Shown here in pieces: positions 9,601-24,505 of a stretch of 64,000 nucleotides of DNA; position 1 is the first letter of the stretch; each line of letters starts with the position of its first letter. The stretch lies in the NCBI GenBank assembly GCA_964504165.1, contig CAZDDH010000006.1:4235-68234 (forward strand), given 5' to 3'. The notes under the pieces are model-generated. The model was given only the letters and a program-made list of their open reading frames with translations. It did no database searches and was not told where the DNA came from. The DNA comes from an uncultured Rickettsiales bacterium (GTDB lineage Bacteria > Myxococcota_A > UBA796 > UBA9615 > CAYRNR01). The translations under genes were made by a program, and so were the position numbers.

Positions 9601-9806
9601 GCGAGATGATGGCGCCGCTGGCCCTCACCGTCATCGGCGGCCTCGGGGCGGCTTCGCTGTTCACGATGATCGTGGTGCCGGTGGTGTACATCATCATCGA
9701 CAACATCGCCGCCAAGGGTGGCATGGCGTGGACGTGGATCTTCCACCGGGACGAGTACAACCGCGCCAACGGCGTGCCTGCTGCTGCAGACGATCTCCAA
9801 CCCTAG
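6642..9806 (+). CDS. RND efflux transporter permease (AcrB/CzcA/HAE family), 1054 aa
   Basis: Twelve-TM RND architecture with two large periplasmic loops and a conserved N-terminus (MSITDVSVDRPVTITMLVMIVVVIGVISFTKL). GTG start at 6642 overlaps the adaptor stop (GTGA). Confidence 0.95.
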   Translation: MSITDVSVDRPVTITMLVMIVVVIGVISFTKLGVDLMPDVDYPTLTVMVRYPGAQSEELEAIVAKPYEGAIAAVNGVKKIKTVSQEDVTFILIDFVWGTDLDAAAADIREQVAWIEPYLPEDVESPIVIKFSLASMPQAFYLVNGMEDTVVLKKMMEDTVQARLERLDGVAQAAFFGGRTREVQVNLDRSSMLGSGVGSDQVLMALAYQNMNMPAGRLIVDREELLLRTVGVYDNLQDIRNTTVGMSRTSGAPVKLATIADVEWGTKDVRNKVRSGPFESVMFMVQKESGANPLQTRREYLAELEDVKKLLPKEIEFGLLFDIGKIIAQLGKSVVQNGIVGAMLAVIIMYLFLRNIRPTATIAVVIPLSLLATFIPIYISGDTLNMMTMGGLVLGIGMLVDNAVVVIENIYRHIELGEGRRKAAKLGAREVGMAIIASTLTTVVVFLPIVIGGGLAARLAQGLALTVAAALFCSLFVALTIVPMLASVFFSNKGSKDSLTGGRLFARFKGLYRRLLTWCVGHRIITVAAVTALFLFTCVLPATPRIGAEFMPASEDPFLMAKISMPVGTALEETEAAAIRVENVISQYPDVLTIGSMMGVDENDPGAGMQESNPTGPHEAVVFVRLKDKKDRVTAGNDELKTSIRENLPVVQNMRVEFVDMGGGFGGSTSPIDIKLYGKDLDVLRDWAERVAESIEDVPGIVDVDTSLRAAKPESHILIDRAKAANYGLTVGQVAQAIKTATLGAVATRYREGGDEFDVRVRYNDSYRDSKAALRQILVPLPMGGTIPLSQVAVLEDGEGPVQITRENQTRRVSITANLENTNLGAAMGEVTKRVDPIKKQLPVGYMLEFGGEYEDMMTTFGQLLMGLALAVLLVYMVMAAQFESFSHPFTIMFTMPLALIGVIWIFFLTGTNLSVTSFIGVIMLAGIVVNNGIVMIDYVNQLRKQGLSLHEAAIEGATTRLRPVMITSLTTMMAMVPMAFFKTEGSEMMAPLALTVIGGLGAASLFTMIVVPVVYIIIDNIAAKGGMAWTWIFHRDEYNRANGVPAAADDLQP

Positions 9807-9957
9807 ATCCCTAACCCTCCCGAACCAGCCCCGAGAATCCCCGGAAGGATCCGAATGTCCGGGTTCCGTCCAGCCGGTGGAGCGAACCGGCTCAGCGCAC
9901 GGATCTCCACGGATGATACCGGCCGTCTTGCTTCGATGGATTGGGGGATTGTGGCCC

Positions 9958-10033
9958 TGGTGGGCAGGGACGGAATCGAACCGCCGACACGGGGATTTTC
10001 AGTCCCCTGCTCTACCTGCTGAGCTACCTGCCC
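9958..10033 (-). tRNA. tRNA-Phe: tRNA-Phe (anticodon GAA), 76 nt with encoded CCA
   Basis: The reverse complement folds as a canonical cloverleaf: GGGCAGG/CCTGCCC acceptor stem, GCTC..GAGC D-stem, GGGGA-CTGAAAA-TCCCC anticodon arm with GAA, GGCGG-TTCGATT-CCGTC T-arm, discriminator A and CCA. Confidence 0.9.
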
Positions 10034-10209
10034 GGGCCAGAGGTGCAGCGTTTCTAGACAACCATGATCCAAATGTCAACATCCGCGAGTGCGGTGGAAC
10101 CGGTTGACGGGCGAGGAATCACCCTGGCTGTGCTGTCAACACAGGGGTAACGTAGGTATCGTCAGGGGTCGAAACAATCCAGGAGCAATTGGGGCAGGGA
10201 GGCAACACC

Positions 10210-10554
10210 ATGTTCAGTAAGACGACGGTATGGATGGGAATCGCAACCTTGGCGATGGCGTTTGGCCTCGGCTGTAGCGACGTTTGTGATGTGTTCTGCG
10301 AGACCAACGTGGAGAAGATCGAGGAGCTGGGTTGCATGTCCTCCGCCGAATGGAACACGAGCTGGTCGGCTCAGGGCTATGCCAACGCGGACGACTACCT
10401 CGAGCATTGCATGGCGGACAAGGCAGCGGTCTATCGCGATGCCAAAGAACAGTCGGATTCAGCAGCGGCAGACGTCCGTCAGACCTGCAACGACAAGCTC
10501 GAAGAAGCCGAAGCGGCGGACAGCTGCGGTGTCCTGGGGGACGCCGGGTACTGA
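10210..10554 (+). CDS. Small cysteine-rich lipoprotein (114 aa), paralog A
   Basis: Signal peptide and lipobox (MFSKTTVWMGIATLAMAFGLGC), 6 further Cys, motif C-x3-C-x3-C...EE-x-GC...EWNTSW. RBS GGGCAGGGAGG precedes the ATG at 10210. Confidence 0.6.
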   Translation: MFSKTTVWMGIATLAMAFGLGCSDVCDVFCETNVEKIEELGCMSSAEWNTSWSAQGYANADDYLEHCMADKAAVYRDAKEQSDSAAADVRQTCNDKLEEAEAADSCGVLGDAGY

Positions 10555-10637
10555 TCCCTCTTTCGGTCCAACACGCCGTTCCGTGGGGCTTCGCTCCTCT
10601 GGCCGGGCCCACCCCATCGGCCAATAAAGACTCCCAA

Positions 10638-10666
10638 TTGCACTGCTTTCTTCTGTCCTGTAATAT
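10638..10666 (+). promoter_or_regulatory. Sigma70-like promoter candidate TTGCAC – 17 nt – TAATAT upstream of lipoprotein paralog B
   Basis: -35 TTGCAC (10638-10643), 17-nt spacer, -10 TAATAT (10661-10666), about 60 nt upstream of the ATG at 10725. Confidence 0.35.
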
Positions 10667-10724
10667 CCCGCCGAACCTGGGGCGGGTGTGCCCAAAGCGG
10701 CCCCACCGCCAGCCGGAGGGATTC

Positions 10725-11165
10725 ATGATCGGCAGGTTTATCGGTCTGGTAGCGGCGATTTCGTTGAGCCTAACTGCGGTTGGCTGTGGCGGAACATGTG
10801 ACGAACTGTGCAACTTTGCGGCGGATTACTACGAAGAGTGCCTGCCGCAATGGAACACGACCTGGGACGGGCTCGCTCCCGAGGGCGAGGCCTGGGAGAA
10901 CAAGGGCGACTTCCGCGCAGCCTGCCTCGACAGCGCCGAGTCGGGCCGCGCCCAGGCCGGCGATTGTTGCCTCGATCAGGAAGACGAGGACAAGATCGAG
11001 GAGTGCGAGGCCAACACCTTGCTGGCCATCGAGCGCAACTGTGAGGACACCAAGGAACTCTACCGCCAGCCGTGCTCCGAGTACTGGCAGGAGGTCTACA
11101 TCCTCGGTGGCCCCGCGTTCCCGGAAGAAAACCCCACCTGCTCCGAGGAAGAGACCGAGGAATAG
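10725..11165 (+). CDS. Small cysteine-rich lipoprotein (146 aa), paralog B
   Basis: MIGRFIGLVAAISLSLTAVGC lipobox. Shares C-x3-C-x3-C...EEC..WNTTW with paralog A, has 10 further Cys and an acidic tail. GGAGGG RBS at 10715-10720. Confidence 0.65.
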   Translation: MIGRFIGLVAAISLSLTAVGCGGTCDELCNFAADYYEECLPQWNTTWDGLAPEGEAWENKGDFRAACLDSAESGRAQAGDCCLDQEDEDKIEECEANTLLAIERNCEDTKELYRQPCSEYWQEVYILGGPAFPEENPTCSEEETEE

Positions 11166-11475
11166 GCCCGTCGGCCGGGGTTTCACCCGACCTCAGGGCC
11201 CCCCTCTCCTGCCCTCTTCCCTTGCAACGGAACCACGAAAACCCAGGGGCCGGTGACGGCCGGTACGGGGGTCATTGCTCGCGCTCGCGCGCGTTTGCGC
11301 TTGCGGCCATTCGGTAATTGTTCGGTATCATTACCGTCGTTGACATGCCGAGAGGGGCACGACTATCCTTCTGACCAGTGTGAGTTGACGCTGCTGCGAG
11401 TACGTTCTTATGGAAGTTTGTACGTGTGCGCGCGGACGGGACAATCACAAAACCACCCTGAGGTAGGGGCTCACG

Positions 11476-12192
11476 ATGACAGGTAAAATGCACGGATTCC
11501 TGGGGATGTTCATTCTCAGCGCGATGTTGGTTCTGCCGGGATGGGCTGCAGCGCAGCCAGCTGAGGGCGAAGAGGGAAGCGGGGACGAATCCGCCGACGG
11601 GGAGGCGCCGGCCGAACCGGAGGCCACGACCACAGAAGCAGCGCCCGAGGTGGAGGAGATTTCCATCACCCGCGAGCTGCGTACGGTGGAACAGAACGTG
11701 AACGTGCTCAAGGAGAAGGTCTTCCGCTCCAAGGCGCGGTTGCTGCTCCTCGAGGAGAAGGTCATCAAGGGGGTGGTCGCAGGCGCCAAGGCCTCGCTGA
11801 TCCACGTCAACAAGCTGGGCAACTCCTACCGCATCGAGTCCATCTCGTACTTCTTCGACGGCACGCCGATCTTCGAGAAGATCGACAGCGGCAGCGAGTT
11901 CCACCGCAAGAAGGAGCTCAAGATTTTCGAGGGCAACATCCCCCCCGGCAGCCACACGATTACGGCCAACATCGTGGTCAAAGGGCACGGCGGCAGCGAG
12001 TTCTCCTATCTCAACGACTACACGTTCAAGGGCCAGGAGAGCTACTCGTTCATCGCCGAGGACAACAAGACAGCGGTCATCCGTATGGTCCTCGAGAAGA
12101 AGGGCGGCACATTCGGCAAGTTCGAGGATGGGCCGGCGATGAAATTCGAACAAGAAGACGTGGGCAACATCCCCGGTGGTGACGAGTCCTAG
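11476..12192 (+). CDS. Secreted protein (238 aa): signal peptide, acidic low-complexity linker, coiled coil, β-rich C-terminal domain. First gene of the TPR/motor locus.
   Basis: MTGKMHGFLGMFILSAMLVLPGWAAAQ signal peptide, then an E/A/G-rich segment, a heptad region (VEQNVNVLKEKVFRSKARLLLLEEKV) and a β domain. RBS GAGGTAGGGG lies 7 nt upstream of the ATG. Confidence 0.7.
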   Translation: MTGKMHGFLGMFILSAMLVLPGWAAAQPAEGEEGSGDESADGEAPAEPEATTTEAAPEVEEISITRELRTVEQNVNVLKEKVFRSKARLLLLEEKVIKGVVAGAKASLIHVNKLGNSYRIESISYFFDGTPIFEKIDSGSEFHRKKELKIFEGNIPPGSHTITANIVVKGHGGSEFSYLNDYTFKGQESYSFIAEDNKTAVIRMVLEKKGGTFGKFEDGPAMKFEQEDVGNIPGGDES

Positions 12193-12224
12193 CGTGACCC
12201 TCAGGATGGGAGGCGCGGCCCTTC

Positions 12225-14702
12225 ATGCGAAGAAGCGCAGATAAAAAAATAAGACTATGTTCGGCCCTCCGTGGAGCGACCTTGTTGCTCCTGGGGGTCT
12301 GCTGGATCGCCGGGAACGCAGCGGCCGCCCAACGTGCGGGTGGCCGGGGCGGCTCCTTGAACCCGACCACACACCTGGATCTCCTCGTCGAGCGGTTGAA
12401 CATCCTCGAGATCCAGTTCAACAACCTGCGGGACTCGGTGCGTGGTGCCCCCCTCAGCCGTTCGCCGGCGGAGGTCAACGACCTGCTCTTCGAGGCGAAC
12501 TTCGCATTCCTCACCGAGGACTACGAGCGCTCCTCGTTGCTGTACTTCTCCTTGCTGGAGAACGGCGACCTGGTCGGCCACGGCGAGGAGGCCGAGGCCC
12601 AGTACTTCCTGGCCGAGAGCCTGTTCCTGGCGCGCAATTTCTATCCGGCCCAGGAGGCCTTCAAGAATATCGTATCCATCGGTCCGACCCATCCGCACTA
12701 CGACGGCGCGGTGATGAAGCTGATCGAGATCTGTGGGTTCACCGGCGACGTGGAGCTCTTCAACTACTACTACAACAACTTCTTACAGACGACGCGGTCC
12801 GGAAGCGGCCCGTCTGCTCTGCGCGTGCGGTACGCGCTGGGGAAGACCCTCTATCGCCAGGGCAAGCTCGACGAAGCCAAGGCGATGTTCAACGAGTTCC
12901 CCAAGGGCAGCACCTACACCTCGCAGGCGCGGTACCACTACGGCGAGATCCTGGTGAAGGAGGGCTACGAGATGGCCCTCGCCGGCAACACCGAGGCGGC
13001 CGAACAGCGCTACCGGGCGGCCATGCCCGTGTTCCAGGACGTCATCCAGCTGCCCATCTCCACGGATGAACAGCTGAAGATCCAGCACCTGGCTTATCTG
13101 GCGCTGGGGGCCCTGAGTTTCGAACTCAAGGATCTGCCCGCGGCCATCGCCGCGTACCAGAATATCCCCAATAGCTCCTCGTTCTTCGCCGACTCCCTGT
13201 TCCAGATCTGCTGGGCCTACATCCAGCTCGGCGACTACGAGGGTGCCCTACGGACCATCGATATCTTCTTGCTGGCCTTCCCGGACGACACGCGGGAGCC
13301 GGAGCTGAAGCTGCTCGCGGCTCACCTGCGGGTCAAGCTCAAGAACTACGAAGACGCGGTGACCGAGTACAAGGCCGTCGTCGCCGAGTACGAGGACATC
13401 AAACAGCGCCTGGACGTGCTGGTGGGGTCGGACGTGGATCCCATGGTGTACTTCAACCAGCTGGTGGACGAGTCCTACATCGTGGACGTGAACTACCAGG
13501 TCCCCGAGTTGGCCGCCCGGATGGCCCGCGAGGATCCCCGCCTGGCCAAGGCGGTGGGCGTGGCATCGGACCTCCAGCGGGAGGCCATGGAGATCGCCGA
13601 GGGGCAGGAGACTGTTGCGACCATCGAGGCCGCCGTCTACGCCGAGGACTCGGGCGACCTGATGACCGCCTACCGGGCCAAGCGCCAGGAGATGGATGGC
13701 CTGGACGCTCAGATCCTGGACATGGAGTCGGATCTGGTCATCGTGGAGGCCAACTACCTCATCGACGCGTTGGGGGGCGAGAACGCCGCCGGCATCCAGC
13801 AGATCGTCGAGCGGCGCCGTCAGCTCAGCAGGGAAGTGGCCTCTGTATCGGCCATGTACAGCGATCGCGCCGAGTACCGGGAGGACGTGGAATCCGCGGC
13901 CAAGGCCGTGGACAACGAGGCCTACAAGCTCGAGACGATGGTGGACGACATCCTCGCGCGCCTGGCGGGCAACGAGATCTATCTCAAGACCCAGCTGGCC
14001 AGCGGGGCGATGACCGACGGGGAGGTCCAGGGCCACAAGCTGGCGATCCAGGCACTCCGCGACGAGTTGCGTGAGCATCAGGAGGAGTTCGACAGCATCC
14101 ATCGCGCCATGGCTACCGGTCGTCTGACGGCGAGCCTGGGGGATGAATCGGACGAGACCGAGCAGGGCAAGCGCAAAGAGGTGCGCGCGCAGATGGCGCA
14201 GCTGGCCGAGGACCTGATCGGCTATCGGTCCGGCGTCACCAAGGGGAACGCCCGCCAGTTCTTCGCCTCCATCGACTCCGGTCGCCAGCGGCTGAGGAAC
14301 ATGCGCAACGACGGGCAGAGCATGCGGGTCGACCTGGAGCGCCGTGAACGGGAAGAGCTGGACCAGATCCGCCAGCTGCTCAGCCAGGAGAAGAGCGCCC
14401 TTTCGTCGTATGCCGTCGATGCTCAGCAGTACCGCACCGATAGCACGGACGTCTCTGGCCACATCGCCGAAGCGAGCTTCCGCGGTGTGCAGCGGGAGTT
14501 CGAGGACACGGTGATGCAGGCGGACATGGGGGCCATCGACGTCTTCTGGATGCAAAAGGAGGAGGTCACCACGCAGCGCGAGAACCTGCGTGACGAGCGC
14601 AACGCCATGCTCAAGGAGCTCAAGCGTATGTACTCGGGGCTCCTCGACTTCGACGAGGAAGAAGAGGACGAAGACGATGACACCTGGGGGGTGATCGAAT
14701 GA
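12225..14702 (+). CDS. Periplasmic TPR-repeat / coiled-coil protein (825 aa), GltD/GltE-like scaffold candidate
   Basis: Signal peptide (RLCSALRGATLLLLGVCWIAGNAAAAQ), multiple TPR-like helical repeats, a long C-terminal coiled coil and an acidic tail (DFDEEEEDEDDD). Stop overlaps the next start (ATGA). Confidence 0.85.
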   Translation: MRRSADKKIRLCSALRGATLLLLGVCWIAGNAAAAQRAGGRGGSLNPTTHLDLLVERLNILEIQFNNLRDSVRGAPLSRSPAEVNDLLFEANFAFLTEDYERSSLLYFSLLENGDLVGHGEEAEAQYFLAESLFLARNFYPAQEAFKNIVSIGPTHPHYDGAVMKLIEICGFTGDVELFNYYYNNFLQTTRSGSGPSALRVRYALGKTLYRQGKLDEAKAMFNEFPKGSTYTSQARYHYGEILVKEGYEMALAGNTEAAEQRYRAAMPVFQDVIQLPISTDEQLKIQHLAYLALGALSFELKDLPAAIAAYQNIPNSSSFFADSLFQICWAYIQLGDYEGALRTIDIFLLAFPDDTREPELKLLAAHLRVKLKNYEDAVTEYKAVVAEYEDIKQRLDVLVGSDVDPMVYFNQLVDESYIVDVNYQVPELAARMAREDPRLAKAVGVASDLQREAMEIAEGQETVATIEAAVYAEDSGDLMTAYRAKRQEMDGLDAQILDMESDLVIVEANYLIDALGGENAAGIQQIVERRRQLSREVASVSAMYSDRAEYREDVESAAKAVDNEAYKLETMVDDILARLAGNEIYLKTQLASGAMTDGEVQGHKLAIQALRDELREHQEEFDSIHRAMATGRLTASLGDESDETEQGKRKEVRAQMAQLAEDLIGYRSGVTKGNARQFFASIDSGRQRLRNMRNDGQSMRVDLERREREELDQIRQLLSQEKSALSSYAVDAQQYRTDSTDVSGHIAEASFRGVQREFEDTVMQADMGAIDVFWMQKEEVTTQRENLRDERNAMLKELKRMYSGLLDFDEEEEDEDDDTWGVIE

Positions 14703-17700
14703 AGACCTTCCTCACGCTGGTCCTATGCCTGTGGATGCCAACGGTCGTGCTCGCTCAAGAGGCCGAAGAGGGCGAAGCCCCACCGCCGGCCGCCGAACCC
14801 GTGTACCAGGGCAGCGATACCGACATGGAGCTGTTCCGGACGGCCTACCTGCGTTATTCGGACCGGATGGAGGAGATCCGGGCGGAAATCAAGCGGGTCG
14901 TCACCCATCGCTACGAAGAAGAGCTGCATAACATCCGGTCCAGCTACGACGTGCAGACCGAGGAGAAGGAAGCCGAAGAGCGTGCCGCGCGCCTGGAGGC
15001 CATCCGGGAGCACGAGAACTTCATCTCCAAGTACCCGGACAGCCCGTACACGGCCCACCGCATGTTCCGGCTGGCGACCTTATACCTCGAAGAAACCGAC
15101 TACCAGATGGCCGTGGACAACGCCGACTACCGGATGCTCGAAGAGCAGTTCGACGCCGGTGAGATCAGCACCCTTCCGGAGCCGCCGGGCAAGAACTACG
15201 CCCGCAGCATCCGTCTGTTCAAGCGCCTGACCGCGGACTTCCCGGACTACAAGTACCTGGACGCCACCTACTACTTCTTGGGCTATTGCTACGCGGATGA
15301 ACTGAGTGAACAGCAGGACGACGAGCTGGCCCGGGCCACGTACCACGAACTGGTGGAGCGGTTGCCCGACAGCCGCTATGCGGCCAACGGCCACTTCATG
15401 CTCGGCGAGATCTACTTCGAGGATCTGCAGTTCGACGAAGCCATCGTGCACTACACCGAGGTGATGAACACGGGCGTCGAGGAACTCTACGACCGCTCCC
15501 TGTACAAACTCGCTTGGGCTTACTACCGCAAGGACGATCTGGACAACGCCATCCCGCGCTTCGTCCAGCTCATCGACTTCAGCGACTCGATGATGGTGGA
15601 AGAGGGCAAGGAGAGTCAGCTCAAGCCCGAGTCCTTGAAGTACCTCGCCATCTCTCTGGTGGAGCAAGCGGACGATGCCAACCGAACGCCGATGGGGCGG
15701 GCGGAGGCCTTCTTCGAGGAGATCGGAGATCGCGAGTACAAGTACGAGGTCCTCACCGGCATCGATGACGTGCTGTGGCAGCAGGGACGCTACGACGAGG
15801 AGTTGATGACCCTGGAGCGGCTCCAGGAACTGTACCCATTCAGCCCGGACAACCCGGATTTCCAGTACAAGATCATGAACCTTCACTACCTCAAGGACGA
15901 TCGGGATCCCGAAGCTGCTGTGCAGGCACGTATCGACCTGGTGGAGCGTTTCAAGGAAGGGACCCCCTGGTGGGAGGCCAACAAGGACAACCCCGATGCC
16001 CTGCGGGCTGCCGCCAAGTACATCGAGGAATCCCTGGGCGACGTCGCCAGGACCTACCACGCCAGCGCGCAGACCAAGTTCACCGAGCCGGGTGAAGAGC
16101 CTGCCAGGTCCGAGTACATCAAGGCCGCGGTGGCCTATCGGGACTACCTGGACCGTTTCCCGTTCGCCAAGGACGCCTACGAGACCCAGTACCAGATCTC
16201 GGACTGCTACTTCTTCGCCGGCGAGTACGAGATGGCCATCGTCGAGTACAAGAAGCTCGACTCCTATCCGGACAAGACCTACCAAGGGGACGTCCTGGAC
16301 TCCCTGGCGTTCGCCTACGAAGTGCTGATGAACAAGAACGAGGGGGACTACAAGGCCAACCCGTCGTCACTGGCGAACATGGAGATCCCGCTGGGGGACA
16401 AGCCCGAGCAGATCCCGGTCATCCCCATCAGCGAAGCGCGGATGAACTTCATCAAGGCGGTGGACGACCTCTACGCCTTCGATCCGACGCACAAGGACAT
16501 CCCTCGTAAGCAGTACATCGTCGCGGAGATCTTCTACTACCACAACCAGATCGACGAGGCCCGCAGGCGGTTCACCGACATCCTCGACAAATACCCCGAG
16601 AAGTCGTTCGCCGCGTACGTGGCCGGCTACATGGTGGACAGCTACCACAAGACCGGGGACGTCAAGAAGGTCCTGGAGCTGTGCGAGCACTACCTGCAGG
16701 TGGAGATGCTGGGTGACGACCCCGAGTACTGGGCCGAGCGCCTGGCCTTCTACAAGGTCAAGCGGCGCAACTCCCAGTTCAAGCTCGCCGAGCTGGCGGG
16801 TGTGACGGACAAGAAGGAGTCGGCGCGACTCTTCGAGGCGTACTACCGGGAGTATCCGGACAACGAGAATGCGGCCATGGCCCTGTTCAACGCGGCGTTG
16901 CAGTACGAGAACGCCGGGAACACCGTCAAATCCCACTCCCTGTACGAGGAGTTCCTCGACGTCTACGGCAAGGACGAACGCGCACCGAGCATCTTCTTCC
17001 GCATCGCCGGGCAGTACGAGCGCACCATGGACCTGGAAAAGGCCATCGACTACTACACTAAGGTCGCCGCGCTGCACCCCAACTACAAGGATCCGGAGAC
17101 GGGCGAGAACTACACCGCCAACGCCTACTACAACGCCGCCTTCCTGAGCCTGGGGCTCAAGAAGTATGACCAGGCCGCCAAGTTCTTCCTCAAGTACGCT
17201 TCCTATCCGGACGTCGAGGATATCCACGAGGCCTACTGGCGCGCTGCCGAGGCGTACAACGACGGGGGCAACTCCAAGAAGGCCCTCAACCAGTACCAGG
17301 AGTACAACCGGCGCTACGGCGACAAAGAGATCAATCGGACGATGGAGTCCCTGATCAAGCAGCACAAGATTTACAAGGAGCAGAACAACTCCCGCATGAT
17401 CGCCAAGATCGAGGAGCAGCTGCTGGAGGCCTACCACAAGGCACGTGAGGCGGGCGTCGAGCTCAACACCGTCAGCGTGGCCGCTGCCTCTGGCTATGCC
17501 TTCCCGACCCTGGAGACCAGCCTTTTCGAGTACGACAAGATCAAGCTGCCCAACACCATGAAGCAGGAGGACCTCGCGCCGGTCCTGGAGGAAAAGAAGG
17601 AGATGGCCAAGGTGATCCAGGAGGAGGCCAGCACGTTCATGGCCACCTACCCGGACTTCGACCACATCATGGCCTGCTTGTACATCAAGGCGTCCGTGAT

Positions 17701-18049
17701 CCAGAAGTACGCCGAGATGATCTACGCCTGGGACCCGCCCTACGACCGCAAAATTTTCGGACCCAAGACCGAGGACTCGATGTTCGAGTTCAACGACATC
17801 GTCGACGAGATGAAGCTCGAGCTGGCCGAGCCCTTCGAGATCGAGGCCGTCAAGTTGTTCGAGATGGTGCTCGCCAAGGCGCGGGAGATGAAGAAGAACT
17901 CCCCGTGGGTCGACAAAGCCCGCGAGGCGCTGCACAAGGTGGACCCGAACACCTACCCGATGCTCAAGCCCATCAAGGTTCACTACGACGATTCCGTCTA
18001 CGAGCCCATGCCGCAGGCCGTGGCCGCGCCGGTGGAGGAGACACATTGA
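14699..18049 (+). CDS. Periplasmic TPR-repeat protein (1116 aa), GltD/AgmU-like scaffold candidate
   Basis: Signal peptide MKTFLTLVLCLWMPTVVLAQ. Dense TPR-like repeats throughout (e.g. YYFLGYCYADEL.., YKLAWAYYRKDDLDNAI..). Translationally coupled to both neighbours. Confidence 0.88.
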   Translation: MKTFLTLVLCLWMPTVVLAQEAEEGEAPPPAAEPVYQGSDTDMELFRTAYLRYSDRMEEIRAEIKRVVTHRYEEELHNIRSSYDVQTEEKEAEERAARLEAIREHENFISKYPDSPYTAHRMFRLATLYLEETDYQMAVDNADYRMLEEQFDAGEISTLPEPPGKNYARSIRLFKRLTADFPDYKYLDATYYFLGYCYADELSEQQDDELARATYHELVERLPDSRYAANGHFMLGEIYFEDLQFDEAIVHYTEVMNTGVEELYDRSLYKLAWAYYRKDDLDNAIPRFVQLIDFSDSMMVEEGKESQLKPESLKYLAISLVEQADDANRTPMGRAEAFFEEIGDREYKYEVLTGIDDVLWQQGRYDEELMTLERLQELYPFSPDNPDFQYKIMNLHYLKDDRDPEAAVQARIDLVERFKEGTPWWEANKDNPDALRAAAKYIEESLGDVARTYHASAQTKFTEPGEEPARSEYIKAAVAYRDYLDRFPFAKDAYETQYQISDCYFFAGEYEMAIVEYKKLDSYPDKTYQGDVLDSLAFAYEVLMNKNEGDYKANPSSLANMEIPLGDKPEQIPVIPISEARMNFIKAVDDLYAFDPTHKDIPRKQYIVAEIFYYHNQIDEARRRFTDILDKYPEKSFAAYVAGYMVDSYHKTGDVKKVLELCEHYLQVEMLGDDPEYWAERLAFYKVKRRNSQFKLAELAGVTDKKESARLFEAYYREYPDNENAAMALFNAALQYENAGNTVKSHSLYEEFLDVYGKDERAPSIFFRIAGQYERTMDLEKAIDYYTKVAALHPNYKDPETGENYTANAYYNAAFLSLGLKKYDQAAKFFLKYASYPDVEDIHEAYWRAAEAYNDGGNSKKALNQYQEYNRRYGDKEINRTMESLIKQHKIYKEQNNSRMIAKIEEQLLEAYHKAREAGVELNTVSVAAASGYAFPTLETSLFEYDKIKLPNTMKQEDLAPVLEEKKEMAKVIQEEASTFMATYPDFDHIMACLYIKASVIQKYAEMIYAWDPPYDRKIFGPKTEDSMFEFNDIVDEMKLELAEPFEIEAVKLFEMVLAKAREMKKNSPWVDKAREALHKVDPNTYPMLKPIKVHYDDSVYEPMPQAVAAPVEETH

Positions 18050-19668
18050 TGCGCCACCACCTACCTGTCCTGGCCGCCATTTTGGTGTGCATGCCGTTCC
18101 TGGGCGGGGTGCAGCAGTGCGGGAGCACTCAGCCGACGAACTCGGGTGATCAGCAGCCCGACGCGGGCGCCACGACCACGGACGCCACACCCACGAGCGA
18201 AGGCGGCACCGCGACCGACGAGGCGGGGGCACCCGCCGAACCGGGAGCCGTTGACCCGGAAACCGGCGAGCCCGTGCCGGCCGCCCCCCCCGCTCCCCCG
18301 GCCGAGACCGCGGAGCAGATCGCCCGGCGTGAGTTCGACGATGGGGTGATGGCGATGAACCTGGTGCCCCCCCAGTTGCCAACTGCCGTCGCGCGTTTCG
18401 AGAGCGTGGTGTCGCGTGTGCCCGACTGGGCCCAGGGCCACTACAACCTGGGCCTCGCCTACATGAAGCAAGGCAACGTGACCAAGGCCATCCCTTCGCT
18501 GGAGAAGGCCACGAGCAAGGATCCCACCATCGGTGAGGCATGGGTTGCGTTGGGTGTGTGCTACGAGCGCCAGGAGCGGCGCGGTGCGGCGTTGGATGCA
18601 TACTCGCAGTGCATCAAAAATGACCCGGAGAACGCCGACTGCCGGCTCGGCTCGGTGCGCATGGACTTTGCTGCCGGCGCCAGCGCGGATGAGATCGTGG
18701 ATCGGATCCGGGACATCCTGCGTATCAACTCCACCTCGGTAGGGGCGTACCTGTTGCTGTCCCAGGCTTACATGAAGCAGGGGGAACCCCAGCTGGCCAA
18801 GTTCGCCCTGGAGAAGGCCCGCCGGGCGAATCCCCTCGCCGAGCAGAATCCGACGCTGCACTGTAATCTGGGCATGATCTACCGCGAACTCGGGCTGGAT
18901 TTCGAGGCCAAACTCGAGTTCGAGAAGGCCATCGAGCTGGACCCCAATCACATCCAAACGCGGGTCAACCTGGCCAACCTCAAGCTCCATGATCTGGATT
19001 TCGAGGGAGCCCGCGATCTGGCTGCGCCCGCGGTCCAGCTGGATCCCAACCACGTAGGCGCCCGGCTGGCACTGGCCGTTGCCAAGCGCGGTACCGGTGA
19101 TCTGCAGGGCGCGGTGACCGATCTGACCTATGTGCTGGAGAACGATCCGGGCAACAAGGATGCGCTGTTCAACCTCGGCGTGCTCTACTCGGACTTTTCT
19201 CGTGAGAACGACAAGGCCGTCCAGACGTACGAAGAGCTGATCCGGATTCTGCCCGAGGGGGAAGACCGGGATCAGGTCCAGAGTTACATCGACGAGGTCC
19301 GCAAATCCCAGGAGCGCGAGCTGCGGGATCGGGAGCGCGAGCAGCGTCGCAAGGAACGTGAGGCGCAGCGTAAGGCTGATGAGGAGGCCCGTGCCGCCGA
19401 AGAGGCCGCCGCCGCCGCTGCCGAAGCTGCTGCGGCCCAGGAGGCCGCCGCCGCTGCCGAAGCTGCTGCGGCCCAGGAGGCCGCCGCCGCCGCCGAGGAA
19501 GCAGCTGCCGCTGCCGCCGAAGCCGCCGCCAACGAGGCAGCGGGTGCCGAGGCTCCTGCTGCCGAGGCTCCTGCTGCGGGGACGCCGCCGGCAGAAGGTG
19601 AAGGGTCGCAACCCGCAGCCGAGGAAGAGACCCCCGCGGAACCAGCCCCGGCGGGCGGGAGCGAGTAG
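18049..19668 (+). CDS. Periplasmic TPR-repeat protein (539 aa) with a C-terminal Arg/Glu coiled coil and an Ala/Glu-rich low-complexity tail
   Basis: Signal peptide MRHHLPVLAAILVCMPFLGG. TPR repeats (HYNLGLAYMKQGNVTKAI.., AWVALGVCYERQERRGAAL..). Tail REREQRRKEREAQRKADEEARAAEEAAAAAAEAAAAQEAAAAAEAAAAQE... ATG at 18049 overlaps the previous stop by 1 nt. Confidence 0.8.
   Translation: MRHHLPVLAAILVCMPFLGGVQQCGSTQPTNSGDQQPDAGATTTDATPTSEGGTATDEAGAPAEPGAVDPETGEPVPAAPPAPPAETAEQIARREFDDGVMAMNLVPPQLPTAVARFESVVSRVPDWAQGHYNLGLAYMKQGNVTKAIPSLEKATSKDPTIGEAWVALGVCYERQERRGAALDAYSQCIKNDPENADCRLGSVRMDFAAGASADEIVDRIRDILRINSTSVGAYLLLSQAYMKQGEPQLAKFALEKARRANPLAEQNPTLHCNLGMIYRELGLDFEAKLEFEKAIELDPNHIQTRVNLANLKLHDLDFEGARDLAAPAVQLDPNHVGARLALAVAKRGTGDLQGAVTDLTYVLENDPGNKDALFNLGVLYSDFSRENDKAVQTYEELIRILPEGEDRDQVQSYIDEVRKSQERELRDREREQRRKEREAQRKADEEARAAEEAAAAAAEAAAAQEAAAAAEAAAAQEAAAAAEEAAAAAAEAAANEAAGAEAPAAEAPAAGTPPAEGEGSQPAAEEETPAEPAPAGGSE
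19414..19485 (+). repeat. In-frame perfect 36-bp tandem duplication encoding an AAEAAAAQEAAA repeat
   Basis: gccgctgccgaagctgctgcggcccaggaggccgcc occurs twice back-to-back (19414-19449 and 19450-19485), inside the CDS 18049..19668. Confidence 0.8.
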
Positions 19669-19705
19669 GAAATGGGATGCCCCGAGGACCTCGTGCGTGG
19701 TCAAG

Positions 19706-19732
19706 AGACCGTCAAACAAGAGACGGTTTGTC
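19706..19732 (+). terminator. Weak hairpin/terminator candidate downstream of the third TPR gene
   Basis: ACCGTC-aaacaaga-GACGGT is a 6-bp stem with an 8-nt loop, followed by TTTGTCG. It lies 40 nt after the stop at 19668. Confidence 0.3.
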
Positions 19733-19819
19733 GAACATGCGCAACTAGTCCGCGGGACAGCACGTTGGATGGGTTATAACCGTCGCGTTTGATGGTTTGG
19801 AAAAGCGCTGTGAGCGTGG

Positions 19820-19848
19820 TTGTGCCAGGTCTGCGAGTTCCCTATAAT
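19820..19848 (+). promoter_or_regulatory. Sigma70-like promoter candidate TTGTGC – 17 nt – TATAAT upstream of the motor sub-operon
   Basis: -35 TTGTGC (19820-19825), 17-nt spacer, consensus -10 TATAAT (19843-19848), about 50 nt upstream of the GTG at 19897. Confidence 0.4.
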
Positions 19849-19896
19849 GGGATGCTCTTGGGCTAGGACCGGAACCGAAAAAGAGGAGCAATATCG

Positions 19897-20154
19897 GTGA
19901 GTTTGGTACGTTTCAGCCGATCGATAATGCTCGGGGCGATCGCGGTCGTCCTGCTGTGCTGTGCCCCCGTGGGCCAGGCACAACAACGTAAAAAAATCGT
20001 CATAGAAGAGGCGGAACAGGTTGAAGGTACGGTTCAGAAGCCCCAGGTGACGTACATTGTCACTCGCCAGGACATCGAGGACCATGAGCAGTTGAAGCTG
20101 GACAAGAGCTTCGTACCCAAGATCGTCGAGTCTGTGGACAAGGAACCTTTCTGA
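19897..20154 (+). CDS. Small secreted or membrane-anchored protein (85 aa), hypothetical
   Basis: GTG start with RBS AAGAGGAG 6 nt upstream. N-terminal hydrophobic segment MLGAIAVVLLCCAPVGQAQ followed by a charged tail. Confidence 0.5.
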   Translation: MSLVRFSRSIMLGAIAVVLLCCAPVGQAQQRKKIVIEEAEQVEGTVQKPQVTYIVTRQDIEDHEQLKLDKSFVPKIVESVDKEPF

Positions 20155-20244
20155 ACGAATTAGAGGATCGAACATTGAGCGGCCGTGGACTACGTGCCGT
20201 TCAGTGAGATACGGATACAAGTTCATTCCAAGGAGGATTTCGGA

Positions 20245-20898
20245 ATGGGAAGCATGGTTGAGTTCTTCAGTAAGGGTGGACCGTTCATGTACGGGATCTT
20301 GGGCGTGTGGGTTATCGCCCTGGCGACCATCATCGAGCGGTTCTACTTCATCTTCTTCAGGTACAACCTAAACGGCGCCGCCTTCATGGCTCAGATCCAG
20401 AAGCTCGTGATGGCGAACAACATCGACCGCGCCATCAAGCTGTGCAACGCAGAGGCGAACGCCGCGTTGAGCCGCGTGCTCAAGGCAGGCCTCACCCGCG
20501 CCAACCGCAGCACGTTGGAGATCCAGAACGCTGTGGACGAGGCCACGCTGGAGGTCATGCCTCTGGTGACCAAGCGCACCCCGATGCTGGGTATGTGGGC
20601 CAACGTCGCCACCCTGACAGGTCTGCTGGGAACCATTTCCGGTCTGATTCAGGCGTTCAAGGCCGTAGGTGCCGCATCCGCCGAACAGAAGCAGGCCCTC
20701 TTGGCTTCCGGTATTTCCATCGCCATGTACACCACGATGTTCGGTCTCATCGTGGCCATCCCGACCATGGTGTTCCACGCCATCATCCAGGGTCGCACGA
20801 CCAAGGTGATCGACGACGTGGACCAGTACTCGGTGAAACTGGTCAACCTGCTCAGTGCTCGTCAGCGTGGTTCGCTGAAGGAGTCTGAAGGTCAGTAG
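20245..20898 (+). CDS. MotA/TolQ/ExbB-family proton-channel protein (AglR/TolQ-like)
   Basis: MGSMVEFFSKGGPFMYGILGVWVIALATIIERFYF... is a typical ExbB N-terminus and first TM, with two more TMs near the C-terminus (ISIAMYTTMFGLIVAIPTMVFHAII). AGGAGGA RBS at 20231-20237. The track's in-frame GTG at 20185 is an alternative start that cannot be excluded. Confidence 0.9.
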   Translation: MGSMVEFFSKGGPFMYGILGVWVIALATIIERFYFIFFRYNLNGAAFMAQIQKLVMANNIDRAIKLCNAEANAALSRVLKAGLTRANRSTLEIQNAVDEATLEVMPLVTKRTPMLGMWANVATLTGLLGTISGLIQAFKAVGAASAEQKQALLASGISIAMYTTMFGLIVAIPTMVFHAIIQGRTTKVIDDVDQYSVKLVNLLSARQRGSLKESEGQ

Positions 20899-20998
20899 AT
20901 CGGTCTGCTGGGCTTGAGCGTGGTGTCCTGAATGGGGCATCACAGTCGGCTAGCGAACGCGGCCCAATGGCCGCCGCCGTAGAAACCTGGAGAGCCAA

Positions 20999-21568
20999 AT
21001 GAGTGCTGCCGCGAATCGTAAAAAAGGCGCCATTCAGCAGAAGGTCGAGCCACCAAATATGGTGCCGATCATGAACCTGATGACGATTCTCATCCCGTTC
21101 ATCCTGCTGTCGGTACAGTTCGTTCACCTCGCGGTGATCGACAGCTCCCTGCCGGCCATTGGAGCGCCCAAGGCCACATCGGAGACCGTGGACGACAAAC
21201 CCCCGCTGATGCTAACGGTGGCCGTCACCGACCGAGGATTCATCGTGGGTGGAAACGCGGCCATTCTCTCTACAGGTGAAGAAGAGGAAGCCGGACAGAT
21301 CACGGATGTTGCCCAGGCCGTCGAGCGCGAGCCGACCATCCCTGTGGATAACGAGGGCAACCATCAATACGAGAAGCTCACCGAGCTGCTCGTCAAGGTG
21401 AAGGCCGAGTATCCGGATGAGCAGAATGTCATCCTGATACCGGAGTCCGAGATCGTCTACGAAGTCATCATTGGGACCATGGACGCCACGCGAGACCACG
21501 AACCCGAGGGAGCCGAAGAGAAAGAAATGCTCTTCCCCTTCGTGGTCATCGCCGGTGGCGCACAGTAG
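20999..21568 (+). CDS. ExbD/TolR-family protein (AglQ/AglS-like), first copy
   Basis: Short cytoplasmic N-terminus and a single TM (MVPIMNLMTILIPFILLSVQFV) with a conserved acidic residue context, then a periplasmic domain. GGAGAG RBS. Confidence 0.82.
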   Translation: MSAAANRKKGAIQQKVEPPNMVPIMNLMTILIPFILLSVQFVHLAVIDSSLPAIGAPKATSETVDDKPPLMLTVAVTDRGFIVGGNAAILSTGEEEEAGQITDVAQAVEREPTIPVDNEGNHQYEKLTELLVKVKAEYPDEQNVILIPESEIVYEVIIGTMDATRDHEPEGAEEKEMLFPFVVIAGGAQ

Positions 21569-21577
21569 GAGCCAGCA

Positions 21578-22090
21578 ATGCCAAGTCCAGCAGAGCTCCG
21601 CGCTAAATCGAAGAGCAGGGCCGGCGAAAAGCAGGAACTGTCCATCACGTCGCTCATGGACATGATGACCATCATCCTGGTTTTCCTCCTGAAGAGCTAC
21701 TCCGTGGAAGATATCCAGGTGAAGCCTTCAGCTGACCTGCGGTTGCCCGCATCCTCCTCCAAAAAGGCACCCGAGGTCGCCGTCAACCTGGTGGTTTCCA
21801 AGCGGACCATTTCAGTAGACGGGGTCAAGGTCATCGATGTCAGTGACATGGCCGTGGCCGAGGAATACAAGCGTGGGACCATGATCACGCCGCTGTACGA
21901 TACGTTGCAGGAGAAGGCAGACGATGCCAAGGCAATCGCTGCTCGCAACGTGAATCAGCCGTTCACGGGACGCATGCTCCTCCAGTGCGATGAGAAGGTA
22001 CCTTTTTCGTTGCTTCGCGAGGTGATGTACACTGCCGGCCAGGCGCAGTTCGGTGAGTTCAAGTTCGTGGTCTACAAGAACAGTGAATAA
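21578..22090 (+). CDS. ExbD/TolR-family protein, second copy
   Basis: ITSLMDMMTIILVFLLKSY is the ExbD-type TM with the conserved Asp (LMDMM). Periplasmic ExbD fold. Confidence 0.82.
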   Translation: MPSPAELRAKSKSRAGEKQELSITSLMDMMTIILVFLLKSYSVEDIQVKPSADLRLPASSSKKAPEVAVNLVVSKRTISVDGVKVIDVSDMAVAEEYKRGTMITPLYDTLQEKADDAKAIAARNVNQPFTGRMLLQCDEKVPFSLLREVMYTAGQAQFGEFKFVVYKNSE

Positions 22091-22228
22091 CTGGGATTAG
22101 GACCTGAGCAGAACTCGTAAACCCTGCTATGATAGAAGGGCGTGCTCTCCGGGACGGGAGCACTGAAGTTCCGGGTCATGAAGGCCCGAAGCTGAATAAG
22201 GAACCGAACAGCACCTGAAGGGACGTCG

Positions 22229-23578
22229 ATGGGCGCCAAGGCTCAACCAAGCCACAAGGTCCTTCGGATCGGCATCATCCAGGGCGGGAAGATTCTCGAA
22301 GAGCGGTTGATCCGTTCAGGCGAGAACGTGACCGTGGGTGAATCCACGAGGAACACGTTCGTTCTTCCCAAATCGTTTCTGCCCAAGCAGTTCAAATTGT
22401 TCGTGGCCAAGGGGCCAGCGTACGCGCTGGCTTTCACGGACAAGATGCAGGGCAAGATCTCCATCAACAACGCGGTGCAGCCACTCAACAAGTTGGCTGG
22501 CAACGTCGCCAAGAAGCGGGGCGACGCCTACTACCTGAGCTTGACTGAGAAGAATCGAGGCAAGGTCCAGATCGGACCGGTCACGATCTTGTTCCAGTTC
22601 GTACAGGCGCCACCTGAACCCAAGAGGGTCGCTGTCAGCTTCAGCCCGTTCAGTGTCGGGCAAGTGGACTGGGTCTATCTGGGGTTCTTCTTCTTCTCGT
22701 GCATCGTCAACGGTGCCGCGTACATCTATGTGGACTCACAGCCGACGCCTGGGAAAGTCAGTATCGAGGACATCCCGGATCGGTTCACCCAGGTCTTCTT
22801 CGATGAAGAGACCGATGTCCAGGTCCCCGAGGAAGAACCCGAAGAGGATGGACTCGGCGAGGCTGAGGAAAAACCCGAGGACACCGGCGAGCCTACTGAC
22901 GCCGGCGGCGAGGCCGATGAGGGAGAGCCCGAAGAGCAAATGTCGGCCGAGGAGATCCGCGACCAGCGCAAGGCCGAACTGATGCAACAGGGGCTCGCTG
23001 CACTCATCGGTACGACAGGCGATACCGCGTCGGGCGATGCTGTGGCAGACCTCCTAGCCGATGGTGGGAGCTTGTCCGGCGACCTGGACGCAGCGCTCGC
23101 ATCCGCGGACGGCATCAAGGTTGCCCGTCGAGGCGAGGACACCACACTACGCGAGGGTGGATCCGGAACCGGCAAGGTCGGGAGTATCACCGACATGAGT
23201 GGTGCCGGGGGCGGAACAGCCGGCAGCGGCGAGAAGGTCCAGAAACAGGTCGAGGCCAAGGTCGGCGGCAACCTGGAGATTACCTTCGGTGACGCGGGCG
23301 ATGTCAGTGCGGTCAAGAAGTACGTGTCGCGCAAGAAGGGCCAGATCAAGGCCTGCTACGAGGAGCAGCTCAAGGGCAACCCCGATCTGCAAGGCAAGGT
23401 GGAAGTGACCTGGACCGTGCTGCCCAGCGGCGGCGTGTCCGGGGTTCACGTGGCCAGCAACAGCACGGGGAACAAGGGCCTGGAAAGCTGCATCATTCGC
23501 CGCATCAACCGTTGGAAGTTCCCCGAAGGGGCCGACGAGTTCGAGATCACCTACCCCTTCAACTTCTTCTCCGGATGA
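22229..23578 (+). CDS. FHA-like N-terminal domain – single TM – acidic/Pro and Gly-rich linker – TonB C-terminal domain protein (GltG/NfsG-like energy transducer candidate)
   Basis: The N-terminus (VLRIGIIQGGKILEERLIRSGENVTVGESTRNTFVL...GKISINNAV) resembles an FHA fold. TM is WVYLGFFFFSCIVNGAAYIYV. Then an acidic linker (PEEEPEEDGLGEAEEKPEDTGEPTDAGGEADEGEPEE) and a Gly/Ser-rich stretch. The C-terminus KACYEEQLKGNPDLQGKVEVTWTVLPSGGVSGVHVASNSTGNKGLESCIIRRINRWKFP matches the TonB-C pattern. Confidence 0.78.
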   Translation: MGAKAQPSHKVLRIGIIQGGKILEERLIRSGENVTVGESTRNTFVLPKSFLPKQFKLFVAKGPAYALAFTDKMQGKISINNAVQPLNKLAGNVAKKRGDAYYLSLTEKNRGKVQIGPVTILFQFVQAPPEPKRVAVSFSPFSVGQVDWVYLGFFFFSCIVNGAAYIYVDSQPTPGKVSIEDIPDRFTQVFFDEETDVQVPEEEPEEDGLGEAEEKPEDTGEPTDAGGEADEGEPEEQMSAEEIRDQRKAELMQQGLAALIGTTGDTASGDAVADLLADGGSLSGDLDAALASADGIKVARRGEDTTLREGGSGTGKVGSITDMSGAGGGTAGSGEKVQKQVEAKVGGNLEITFGDAGDVSAVKKYVSRKKGQIKACYEEQLKGNPDLQGKVEVTWTVLPSGGVSGVHVASNSTGNKGLESCIIRRINRWKFPEGADEFEITYPFNFFSG

Positions 23579-23755
23579 GTCGCTACTTTTTTTGACCGCC
23601 TGACGACTCAAATTTTTTCACAAAGTGTTATCCGCGCAGCGAATGAGCGGTTATATCAACTGCCAATTCAGGTTCAATCGATCGTGCGGGGCAGTTGACA
23701 CGATGGCTCTCCAGCCGTACGCTGAGAGTTCCGTCGGGGTTGCGGAGGATTCTTG

Positions 23756-24313
23756 ATGAGAGTTAACGGAACAGGCCATTGGCCCGGAAGATTCCTGGGC
23801 ATCATGCTGCTCGCAGCTTGTTTGGTAGCTCCAATTGCCCAAGCAGCCGAGGGCGATCCAGCGGATACCGCCAACATGACGCCGCGGCAGCAACTCGATT
23901 TTGCTGAAGAGGCGGTCTCCGACGTCAAGGGCGGGGCCAGGCACGTATTGAAGATGGTGGAGCAGGCACAGAAGAACAAAGACGTGCTGCTGCTCAATTG
24001 CCTCAATGAAAAATTGGCTGGGCTGAAGGCTCTGTTGAAGGTTGTTGAGGACGCGGACATGGCCATGCAAGAGGCGATGGCACGCGAGAACAACGATCTA
24101 GCAAATCACGAATTCCAAAAAGTCACCATGGCCCAGCAGCAGGCATCTCAGCTGGTCGTGGAAGCAGAGGCTTGCGTTCCGGAGGTCGGTGTTTCGTACG
24201 CCGGGCACGGCCGCTGGTCAGTGGATATGCCTGAAGAGCAAGATGATGCGGATGACTACCTCTCGGATCCCAGTGGTTTCGAACGGGCTCCTGAGAAGTC
24301 GCCCTTCAATTGA
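23756..24313 (+). CDS. Secreted α-helical hypothetical protein (185 aa)
   Basis: GGAGGA RBS 6 nt before the ATG at 23756. Signal peptide FLGIMLLAACLVAPIAQAAEG. A TTG at 23753 is an alternative start. Confidence 0.6.
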   Translation: MRVNGTGHWPGRFLGIMLLAACLVAPIAQAAEGDPADTANMTPRQQLDFAEEAVSDVKGGARHVLKMVEQAQKNKDVLLLNCLNEKLAGLKALLKVVEDADMAMQEAMARENNDLANHEFQKVTMAQQQASQLVVEAEACVPEVGVSYAGHGRWSVDMPEEQDDADDYLSDPSGFERAPEKSPFN

Positions 24314-24505
24314 GGGTTGAAGAGGGACGTTCCATCGGATAAAAATCATTCATCAACGCGGTGCTGAGGATGTGCGATGTGGGGCCGCGTGCGGGGATTT
24401 CAACGACAGCCGGATAAGACAGGAAGTCAAAATCGATCGGGATTGAAGAGGGACCCTCTGGGTTTCACACGGACAGGAAGATCTGTAGTAGTGTCTGACG
24501 TTGGA

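Follow-up and report, generated by a model that had tools for sequence, protein, structure and literature searches.

Outer-membrane lipoproteins, GltK/CglC among them, belong to the Agl-Glt gliding machinery of Myxococcus xanthus (Luciano et al. 2011, PMC3169522; Jakobczak et al. 2015, PMC4488436). The products of aglRQS together with those of gltC, gltD, gltE and gltG form a "core complex", whose function was unknown at the time of its definition, also with regard to bacteria other than the gliding myxobacteria (Luciano et al. 2011, PMC3169522). Here we describe two neighbouring genes, A and B, which encode small cysteine-rich putative lipoproteins on a 64,000-nucleotide stretch of contig CAZDDH010000006.1 (hereafter the window) from an uncultured bacterium. 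Like the Agl-Glt lipoproteins, A and B are small predicted lipoproteins whose genes border a cluster of GltC-, GltE-, GltG- and TolQ/ExbD-like genes, in a host of Myxococcota type. Tentatively, we favour the explanation that they are anciently duplicated envelope lipoproteins, which may act as accessory subunits or adaptors of the Agl-Glt "core complex"-type machine encoded downstream of them.

Other described proteins share some of these features. Braun's lipoprotein Lpp is small, alpha-helical and membrane-anchored, as A and B are predicted to be, and A and B may likewise be highly expressed; Lpp has no cysteine beyond the lipid-bearing one, however, and forms a trimeric coiled coil with a C-terminal lysine for peptidoglycan linkage, whereas A and B have 6 and 10 extra cysteines, a predicted bundle fold and acidic C-termini (..AGY and ..TEE), and neither matches the Pfam LPP model. 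RcsF, a small outer-membrane lipoprotein that senses envelope stress, depends for its fold on two structural, non-consecutive disulfides, as the small A and B may do; its fold is alpha/beta, however, and A and B show no sequence or fold match to it. Finally, in the CHCH, twin-Cx3C and twin-Cx9C hairpins (small Tims, Cox17, COX6B) a Cx3C on one helix is paired with cysteines of the neighbouring helix, a layout that A and B recall, although they have a single Cx3C (C26/C30 in A) and no twin motif, and are bacterial exported lipoproteins.

Gene A (10210-10554, plus strand) encodes a 114-aa prolipoprotein with 7 cysteines and gene B (10725-11165, plus strand) a 146-aa prolipoprotein with 11, both being found by open reading frame (ORF) calling and likewise called, A with identical limits, in public assemblies of the same or related organisms. 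The ATG of A lies 7 nt after GGGAGG (10197-10202) and that of B 4 nt after GGAGGG (10715-10720). The signal peptides span residues 1-21 in A and 1-20 in B and end at the lipobox cysteines Cys22 (codon 10273-10275) and Cys21 (codon 10785-10787), and both N termini (K4, hydrophobic residues 7-21 and G-L-G-C22 in A; R4, hydrophobic residues 5-20 and A-V-G-C21 in B) pass a PROSITE-style pattern of the PS51257 type. Mature A has 93 aa, 6 free cysteines and a net charge of -15, while mature B has 126 aa, 10 free cysteines and a net charge of -27 and adds further helical sequence and a disordered acidic tail to an N-terminal core like that of A. An earlier inspection of the DNA without database searches (the sequence-only reading) had described the two as paralogous lipobox proteins with 7 and 11 cysteines; coordinates and counts agree with this, and the relationship is not a chance one, since A and B match each other both in BLASTP (27% identity over 100 aa, E=2e-6) and in profile-profile comparison (hhalign, 97.8% probability, E=8.5e-13). 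As it had also noted, both proteins contain C-x3-C-x3-C (C22/C26/C30 in A, C21/C25/C29 in B) and WNT[ST]W (residues 48-52 in A, 43-47 in B) preceded by a fourth cysteine, although the WNT[ST]W wording proved to be limited to close relatives. The skeleton that A and B have in common thus reads lipid-bearing Cys, C-x3-C, Cys and W-x3-W, followed by three more cysteines in A and seven in B.

There is good support for A and B being genuine genes kept by purifying selection. Relative to their orthologues in locus L039, which are 77% and 83% identical as proteins, A and B have dN/dS values of 0.137 and 0.168, next to 0.115 and 0.107 for neighbouring genes, and 43 columns are invariant across 11 gene B orthologues. 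GC3 in the reading frame is 0.75 for A and 0.80 for B (neighbours 0.85-0.93), so that the possibility that the frames might be non-coding by codon usage or GC3 was not borne out. The two genes evolve faster than their neighbours: in the closer loci (L004 to L014), A is 38-58% and B 48-62% identical to its counterpart in the window, as against 82-89% for the 238-aa protein encoded next to them. Judged by sequence divergence, the A-B duplication is ancient, since A-B pairs occur in lineages whose members are only 25-31% identical to the window pair.

Co-oriented with A and B, a Glt-like cluster recognised by tblastn synteny and NCBIfam models occupies 11476-23578 on the plus strand, and a complete-looking set of its genes takes up 11476-25834. 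It encodes a 238-aa secreted protein, a GltC-like tetratricopeptide repeat (TPR) protein of 825 aa, a 1116-aa TPR protein, a GltE-like TPR protein, a 75-aa ORF, a TolQ-like protein, two ExbD-like proteins and a GltG-like protein with an AgmX/PglI tail (myxo_SS_tail), so that the module reads tRNA-Phe (minus strand), A, B, 238-aa protein, GltC-like, large TPR, GltE-like, TolQ/ExbD and GltG-like. The myxo_SS_tail model NF033768 scores 95.2 bits, above its cut-off of 40. The GltC (74.7 bits), GltE (94.3 bits) and GltG (151.2 bits) models also respond, and TolQ/ExbB and ExbD are related as well, but all of these scores lie far below the equivalog cut-offs, and the machine is for that reason best called Glt-like or "core-complex"-like rather than the gliding apparatus proper. 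In its content the cluster resembles the Agl-Glt "core complex" type, of which it would be a distant and complete-looking version.

In every A-B locus that extends downstream, tblastn synteny places the pair ahead of this same co-oriented cluster, on the same strand (window, L039, L004, L005, L009, L011, L012, L014, L016, L041 and L043). The cluster begins with the 238-aa secreted protein and the 825-aa TPR protein, and the 1116-aa and a 587-aa TPR protein come next where the contig continues. L041 and L043, with identities to the window of only 25-31% for A and B and of 35-57% for the cluster proteins, show no insertion between pair and cluster. Under the explanation that we favour, A and B would be exported by Sec, lipidated by Lgt/LspA at Cys22 and Cys21, respectively, and oxidized to three (A) and five (B) disulfides that would staple a three- to four-helix bundle. 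Both would remain anchored in the envelope and, perhaps as an A/B pair, would be accessory lipoprotein subunits of, or adaptors for, the trans-envelope machine whose genes follow directly, while the acidic tail of B, which in relatives is expanded to long GDDDDSA repeats, would project as a flexible polyanionic arm. Their expression would be tied to the tRNA-Phe promoter region, through back-to-back promoters here and probably through co-transcription with the tRNA in the single-copy relatives (designated C-type) discussed below.

Several observations weigh against this assignment. Neither protein has a homologue of known function, the role is drawn from genomic context only and the link to the Glt-like cluster is positional. 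Unlike the lipoproteins of the Agl-Glt system, A and B match no NCBIfam Glt lipoprotein or gliding model, and neither do 90 relatives. An S49 peptidase gene on the other strand separates B from the cluster in L004 and L005, as do genes for an Opp transporter and an S13 peptidase in L016. The family also occurs without a nearby cluster, given that C-type loci keep the link to tRNA-Phe and show no such cluster within 6 kb. The lipobox of A, G-L-G-C with Gly at position -3, also departs from the textbook L-[AS]-[GA]-C.

A large protein with two S49 peptidase domains recurs in the neighbourhood of family genes (L004 7809-10274, L005 11225-13684, L019 7653-10349 and L034 7878-10673, all on the minus strand) and is absent from the corresponding position in the window. 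This double-S49 peptidase is a neighbour that C-type loci have in common with A-B loci; an NtrC-type activator is present at C-type loci too.

The tRNA-Phe (GAA) gene of the window lies at 9958-10033 on the minus strand (ARAGORN; 70.3 bits with the Rfam tRNA model), and Rfam returned no other match in 9800-11500. The sequence-only reading had placed A and B immediately downstream of this tRNA; the adjacency stands, but the orientation does not, as the two genes are at the 5' side of the tRNA and transcribed divergently from it. This neighbour is shared throughout the family, with tRNA-Phe(GAA) adjoining the family gene at each of the 34 distinct loci whose sequence is long enough. In every one of the 11 distinct A-B loci that reach far enough, it is the immediate upstream neighbour of A and is encoded on the other strand (window/L001, L039, L004, L005, L009, L010, L011, L014, L016, L041 and L043). 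Among the 23 distinct C-type loci, which were collected by a metagenome scan and look-ups, it is immediately upstream and co-directional in 22, one of which (L024) is cut by the contig end, and divergent in L029. The adjacency to tRNA-Phe is therefore the single most conserved feature of the genomic context of the family and not incidental. What lies beyond the tRNA varies, with an RND efflux operon in the window, L004, L005 and L014, and genes for an enoyl-CoA hydratase and an amidohydrolase in L016, L041 and L043; on account of these other upstream genes, a functional link to the RND operon was rejected.

A tRNA gene next to small novel genes could also indicate a mobile genomic island that has integrated at tRNA-Phe and carries A and B. 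Islands integrate at the 3' side of tRNAs, whereas A and B are at the 5' side; the neighbourhood contains no integrase, no direct repeat of the tRNA end was found, GC content is 58-65% across the region and alike in the flanks, an unremarkable composition, and synteny of the layout persists between lineages with as little as 25% protein identity. We rejected this origin, which is scarcely credible, in agreement with the sequence-only reading, which had found island origin unsupported.

The spacers around A and B contain conserved footprints. A candidate promoter of B, TTGCAC, 17 nt and TAATAT, spans 10638-10666 on the plus strand. It had been pointed out before as a promoter-like element of the second copy and turned out to be conserved in 8/8 orthologous A-B spacers, in which TTGC and TA..AT (TTGCnC; -10 element TAATAT or TATCAT) are invariant at the fixed 17-nt spacing, while the spacers themselves are about 100 to 230 nt long with unalignable flanks. 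Phylogenetic footprinting therefore supports a conserved promoter of its own for the second gene, although the element agrees with the consensus at 7/12 positions, which is below the threshold of a consensus scanner, and was not called. Directly after the -10 element, the GC-rich stretch CCCGCCGA (10667-10674, plus strand) is conserved in most of the 8 spacers; GC-rich stretches right after the -10 are typical of stringently controlled promoters. In the tRNA-A spacer, block AACCGCGATCCAAATGTCAACATCC is nearly identical in 7/8 orthologous spacers and its core ATGTCAAC is invariant in 8/8. It contains TTGACA (10079-10074), 17 nt and TAGAAA (10056-10051), on the minus strand (10079-10051), and is likely the tRNA-Phe promoter because only about 17 nt separate it from the 5' end of the tRNA. 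Two further non-coding blocks on the plus strand, GGAATCACCCTGGC (10115-10128) and GGGGTAnnnTAGGTATCGT.. (10144-10168), are conserved in 7/8 aligned tRNA-A spacers and are candidates for a promoter or operator of A; the scanner called no consensus promoter in these blocks, and inspection by eye for sigma-54 or ECF elements gave no convincing match.

The relation to tRNA-Phe is closest in the C-type relatives, whose ORF abuts the tRNA or follows it by 0-20 nt, which leaves no space for a promoter; a Shine-Dalgarno sequence is lacking as well. In 12 of the 22 co-directional loci only 29-51 nt separate C75 of the tRNA from the codon of the lipobox cysteine, and nine of the 22 lack any ATG, GTG or TTG from which as many as seven residues would precede this cysteine (L018 703-816, L019 5875-6003, L020, L021 469-594, L024 1-98, L025 5884-6000, L026 1661-1774, L028 5890-6003 and L034 5881-6003); in L025 the entire open frame is devoid of canonical starts. 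At all nine of these loci the ORF lies in the one frame in which the tRNA contains no stop, compared with 3/13 of the loci with a start codon of their own (Fisher exact test about 4e-4, computed by hand and indicative only, as the loci are related). The hydrophobic signal core of these nine ORFs begins at the last bases of the tRNA (for instance ..W-A-T-I-L-L-L-C-A-G-A-F-A-A-G-C or I-A-R-L-L-L-L-G-L-L-G-A-C), their spacers of 12 to 17 codons differ by whole codons, and in 6/9 the first codon is AUC or AUU, the A of which is tRNA position 76. Other members have an ATG 8 or 17 nt after the tRNA, again without a Shine-Dalgarno sequence, and very short signal peptides (MFLLLLAC, MLLAALLLSC).

For the C-type gene, the likeliest reading overall is co-transcription with tRNA-Phe. 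This is reminiscent of tRNA-mRNA co-transcripts (thrU-tyrU-glyT-thrT-tufB and tyrT-tpr in E. coli) and of mitochondrial "tRNA punctuation", in which the ORF follows the tRNA co-directionally as it does in the C-type, whereas in the window the tRNA points away from A and B, both of which possess normal ribosome-binding sites. A bolder reading, which we consider rather unlikely, would have the whole family welded, in position as well as in function, to tRNA-Phe in a bacterial form of such punctuation, the C-type message being released from the tRNA-Phe precursor. Translation would start, in at least nine lineages, at an AUC/AUU codon at the CCA end of the tRNA or inside the tRNA gene in its stop-free frame, so that one stretch of DNA would encode both the tRNA and the start of the signal peptide. 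The divergent tRNA-A-B layout of the window would then be derived, having gained promoters and ribosome-binding sites of its own. We know of no described bacterial ORF that begins at the CCA end of, or within, a tRNA gene.

The closeness to tRNA-Phe also shows in the databases, where 15 of the 79 representatives recovered by the profile scan described below carry an N-terminal extension, GQVAQLVEQGTENPxVGGSIPS, which is tRNA-Phe translated in its one stop-free frame (P0033, P0043, P0054, P0059, P0068, P0070, P0071, P0074, P0079, P0080, P0082, P0083, P0088, P0090 and P0093). These extensions may be annotation artefacts or possibly, in some cases, the real N terminus.

The constancy of the tRNA neighbour also bears on the main rival to our favoured explanation, which casts A and B as abundant lipoproteins with a structural part in the envelope, spacers or tethers comparable to Braun's lipoprotein, whose production is coupled to growth rate through the strong tRNA-Phe promoter region and which act independently of the Glt-like machine. 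The cluster-free C-type loci favour it, and it would account for tRNA-Phe being the only universally conserved neighbour (34 distinct loci), for single-copy ORFs so close to the tRNA that a promoter of their own cannot fit, for the conserved GC-rich stretch right after the -10 element of B and for the small helical proteins themselves. It does not sit well with the lack of coiled-coil heptads, of a C-terminal lysine and of an Lpp family match, nor with the A-B pair staying ahead of the Glt-like cluster over deep divergence; on balance we regard it as possible but unlikely.

A full HMMER profile scan of 1.84 billion cluster representatives matched 79 proteins at E<=1e-3, nearly all of 90-200 aa, whereas word-indexed searches yielded a handful of orthologues. 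Named members are all "hypothetical protein", and one of them comes from a "Myxococcota bacterium" genome bin (MCK6526720.1). The core motif, a lipobox Cys followed by C-x3-C, 8-14 residues, Cys and W-x3-W, is found in 91/95 sequences, and in a 90-sequence alignment C22, C26, C30, C42, W52 and C67 are invariant and C93 and C106 nearly so. Across these alignments the motif that defines the family is this Cys/Trp skeleton and not WNT[ST]W, which in its exact form is restricted to close relatives. A PROSITE-like lipobox pattern is passed by 88/111 members.

Three subfamilies can be told apart: the A-type, with about 90 aa in the mature form and 6 free cysteines; the B-type, with an A-like N-terminal core followed by a helical part with more cysteines and an acidic tail; and the single-copy C-type, which ends in ..CDELRALYL and is homologous to the A-type (hhalign, E=3.3e-8). 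B-type tails reach up to about 10 GDDDDSA repeats (L041 6462-7082, L043 6001-6624, P0021, P0027, P0037, P0061 and P0064). One B-type protein, P0019, combines a lipobox at one end with a MYXO-CTERM-like tail, hydrophobic, Arg-rich and containing a cysteine, at the other. Two chimeras, probably artefacts of assembly or gene calling or else real fusions, show an unrelated N terminus in place of the signal peptide (P0014) and a DUF4142 domain fused after the N-terminal core (P0050). Six genome bins with the A-B pair and the Glt-like cluster (L009-L014) are titled "uncultured Rickettsiales bacterium", a label that is doubtful because the "Myxococcota bacterium" relative and the myxo_SS_tail domain conflict with it.

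The sequence-only reading did not recognise the family, and the searches support that view. Homology searches placed neither protein in a known family: apart from a DUF4142 hit confined to the chimera P0050, no Pfam or NCBIfam model exceeded its threshold with A, B or any of 90 relatives, and a sequence-profile search of the PDB gave no match for either protein. Neither such a family nor a lipoprotein linked to tRNA-Phe turned up in full-text searches of the literature. The sub-threshold matches, to FemAB_like (21.9 bits against a cut-off of 27), the halocin C8-like TIGR04449 (17 bits against 24, for A), COX6B (E=4.1, 8.1 bits against 26), a ferredoxin model and Lepto_8Cys TIGR04453 (best E 0.0047, in 3/90 members), were rejected together with the DUF4142 hit as chance or fusion artefacts. 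On these comparisons the family is uncurated and consists of small, very acidic lipoproteins, predicted to be all-helical, of uncultured and mostly marine Myxococcota-like bacteria.

The sub-threshold halocin C8-like and Lepto_8Cys matches, together with small size and richness in cysteine, would fit secreted antimicrobial or signalling peptides or their immunity proteins. These matches remain under their cut-offs, though, and no processing or export genes are nearby; the conserved lipobox argues for retention at the membrane, and the single-locus, syntenic, housekeeping-like position and the purifying selection are not what such peptides would lead one to expect, which makes this idea very improbable.

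Counting from the lipobox cysteine onward, 98/111 members have 7, 9, 11 or 13 cysteines and therefore an even number of free ones, for which disulfides are expected in an exported protein; of the two options raised in the sequence-only reading, disulfides or metal binding, the even number points to the former. AlphaFold2 gave A a pLDDT of 88, with 95-98 over most of the mature domain and helices at 25-40, 60-81, 83-102 and 106-111, the W-x3-W lying in the loop after helix 1. B (pLDDT 81) has predicted helices at 24-39, 60-76, 88-114 and 117-124 and a tail (125-146) of low confidence, and thus repeats the layout of A with a longer third helix (88-114); pLDDT is >90 through the mature core of both. 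Foldseek found nothing significant in the PDB, the best hit being NiSOD for A (E about 3, TM 0.30) and one of E=0.97 for B. The models thus describe A and B as a confident helical bundle without a significant match among solved structures.

Cysteines could alternatively contribute to cation binding, A and B then being lipoproteins that buffer or capture Ca2+, Mg2+ or a thiolate-bound metal at the membrane by means of their acidic surface, their D-rich tails or their cysteines. Their net charges, the long GDDDDSA repeats of B-type relatives and the numerous cysteines are compatible with this, yet only Cys and Trp are invariant, with no conserved set of Asp, Glu or His ligands; the even number of free cysteines in 98/111 members is as for disulfides, the cysteines lie on different helices and not in CxxC pairs, and the acidic tails vary greatly in length, being nearly absent in the B of the window. 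Cation binding is accordingly a weaker alternative than the structural-lipoprotein one, and we consider it improbable.

Altogether, these data bring to light a protein family outside all curated databases, from poorly known uncultured marine Myxococcota-like bacteria, with a confidently predicted fold that lacks a significant counterpart among solved structures. They also reveal a practical problem, in that about one fifth of the database representatives of the family carry a probably spurious N-terminal extension translated from tRNA-Phe. Relatives in which the reading frame adjoins or overlaps the tRNA gene could bring to light unusual initiation of translation, or a tRNA gene put to two uses. 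Because it never varies, the link with tRNA-Phe offers a concrete case in which tRNA-coupled expression of envelope proteins can be tested, and with A and B the Agl-Glt "core complex" gains two candidates for lipoprotein components.

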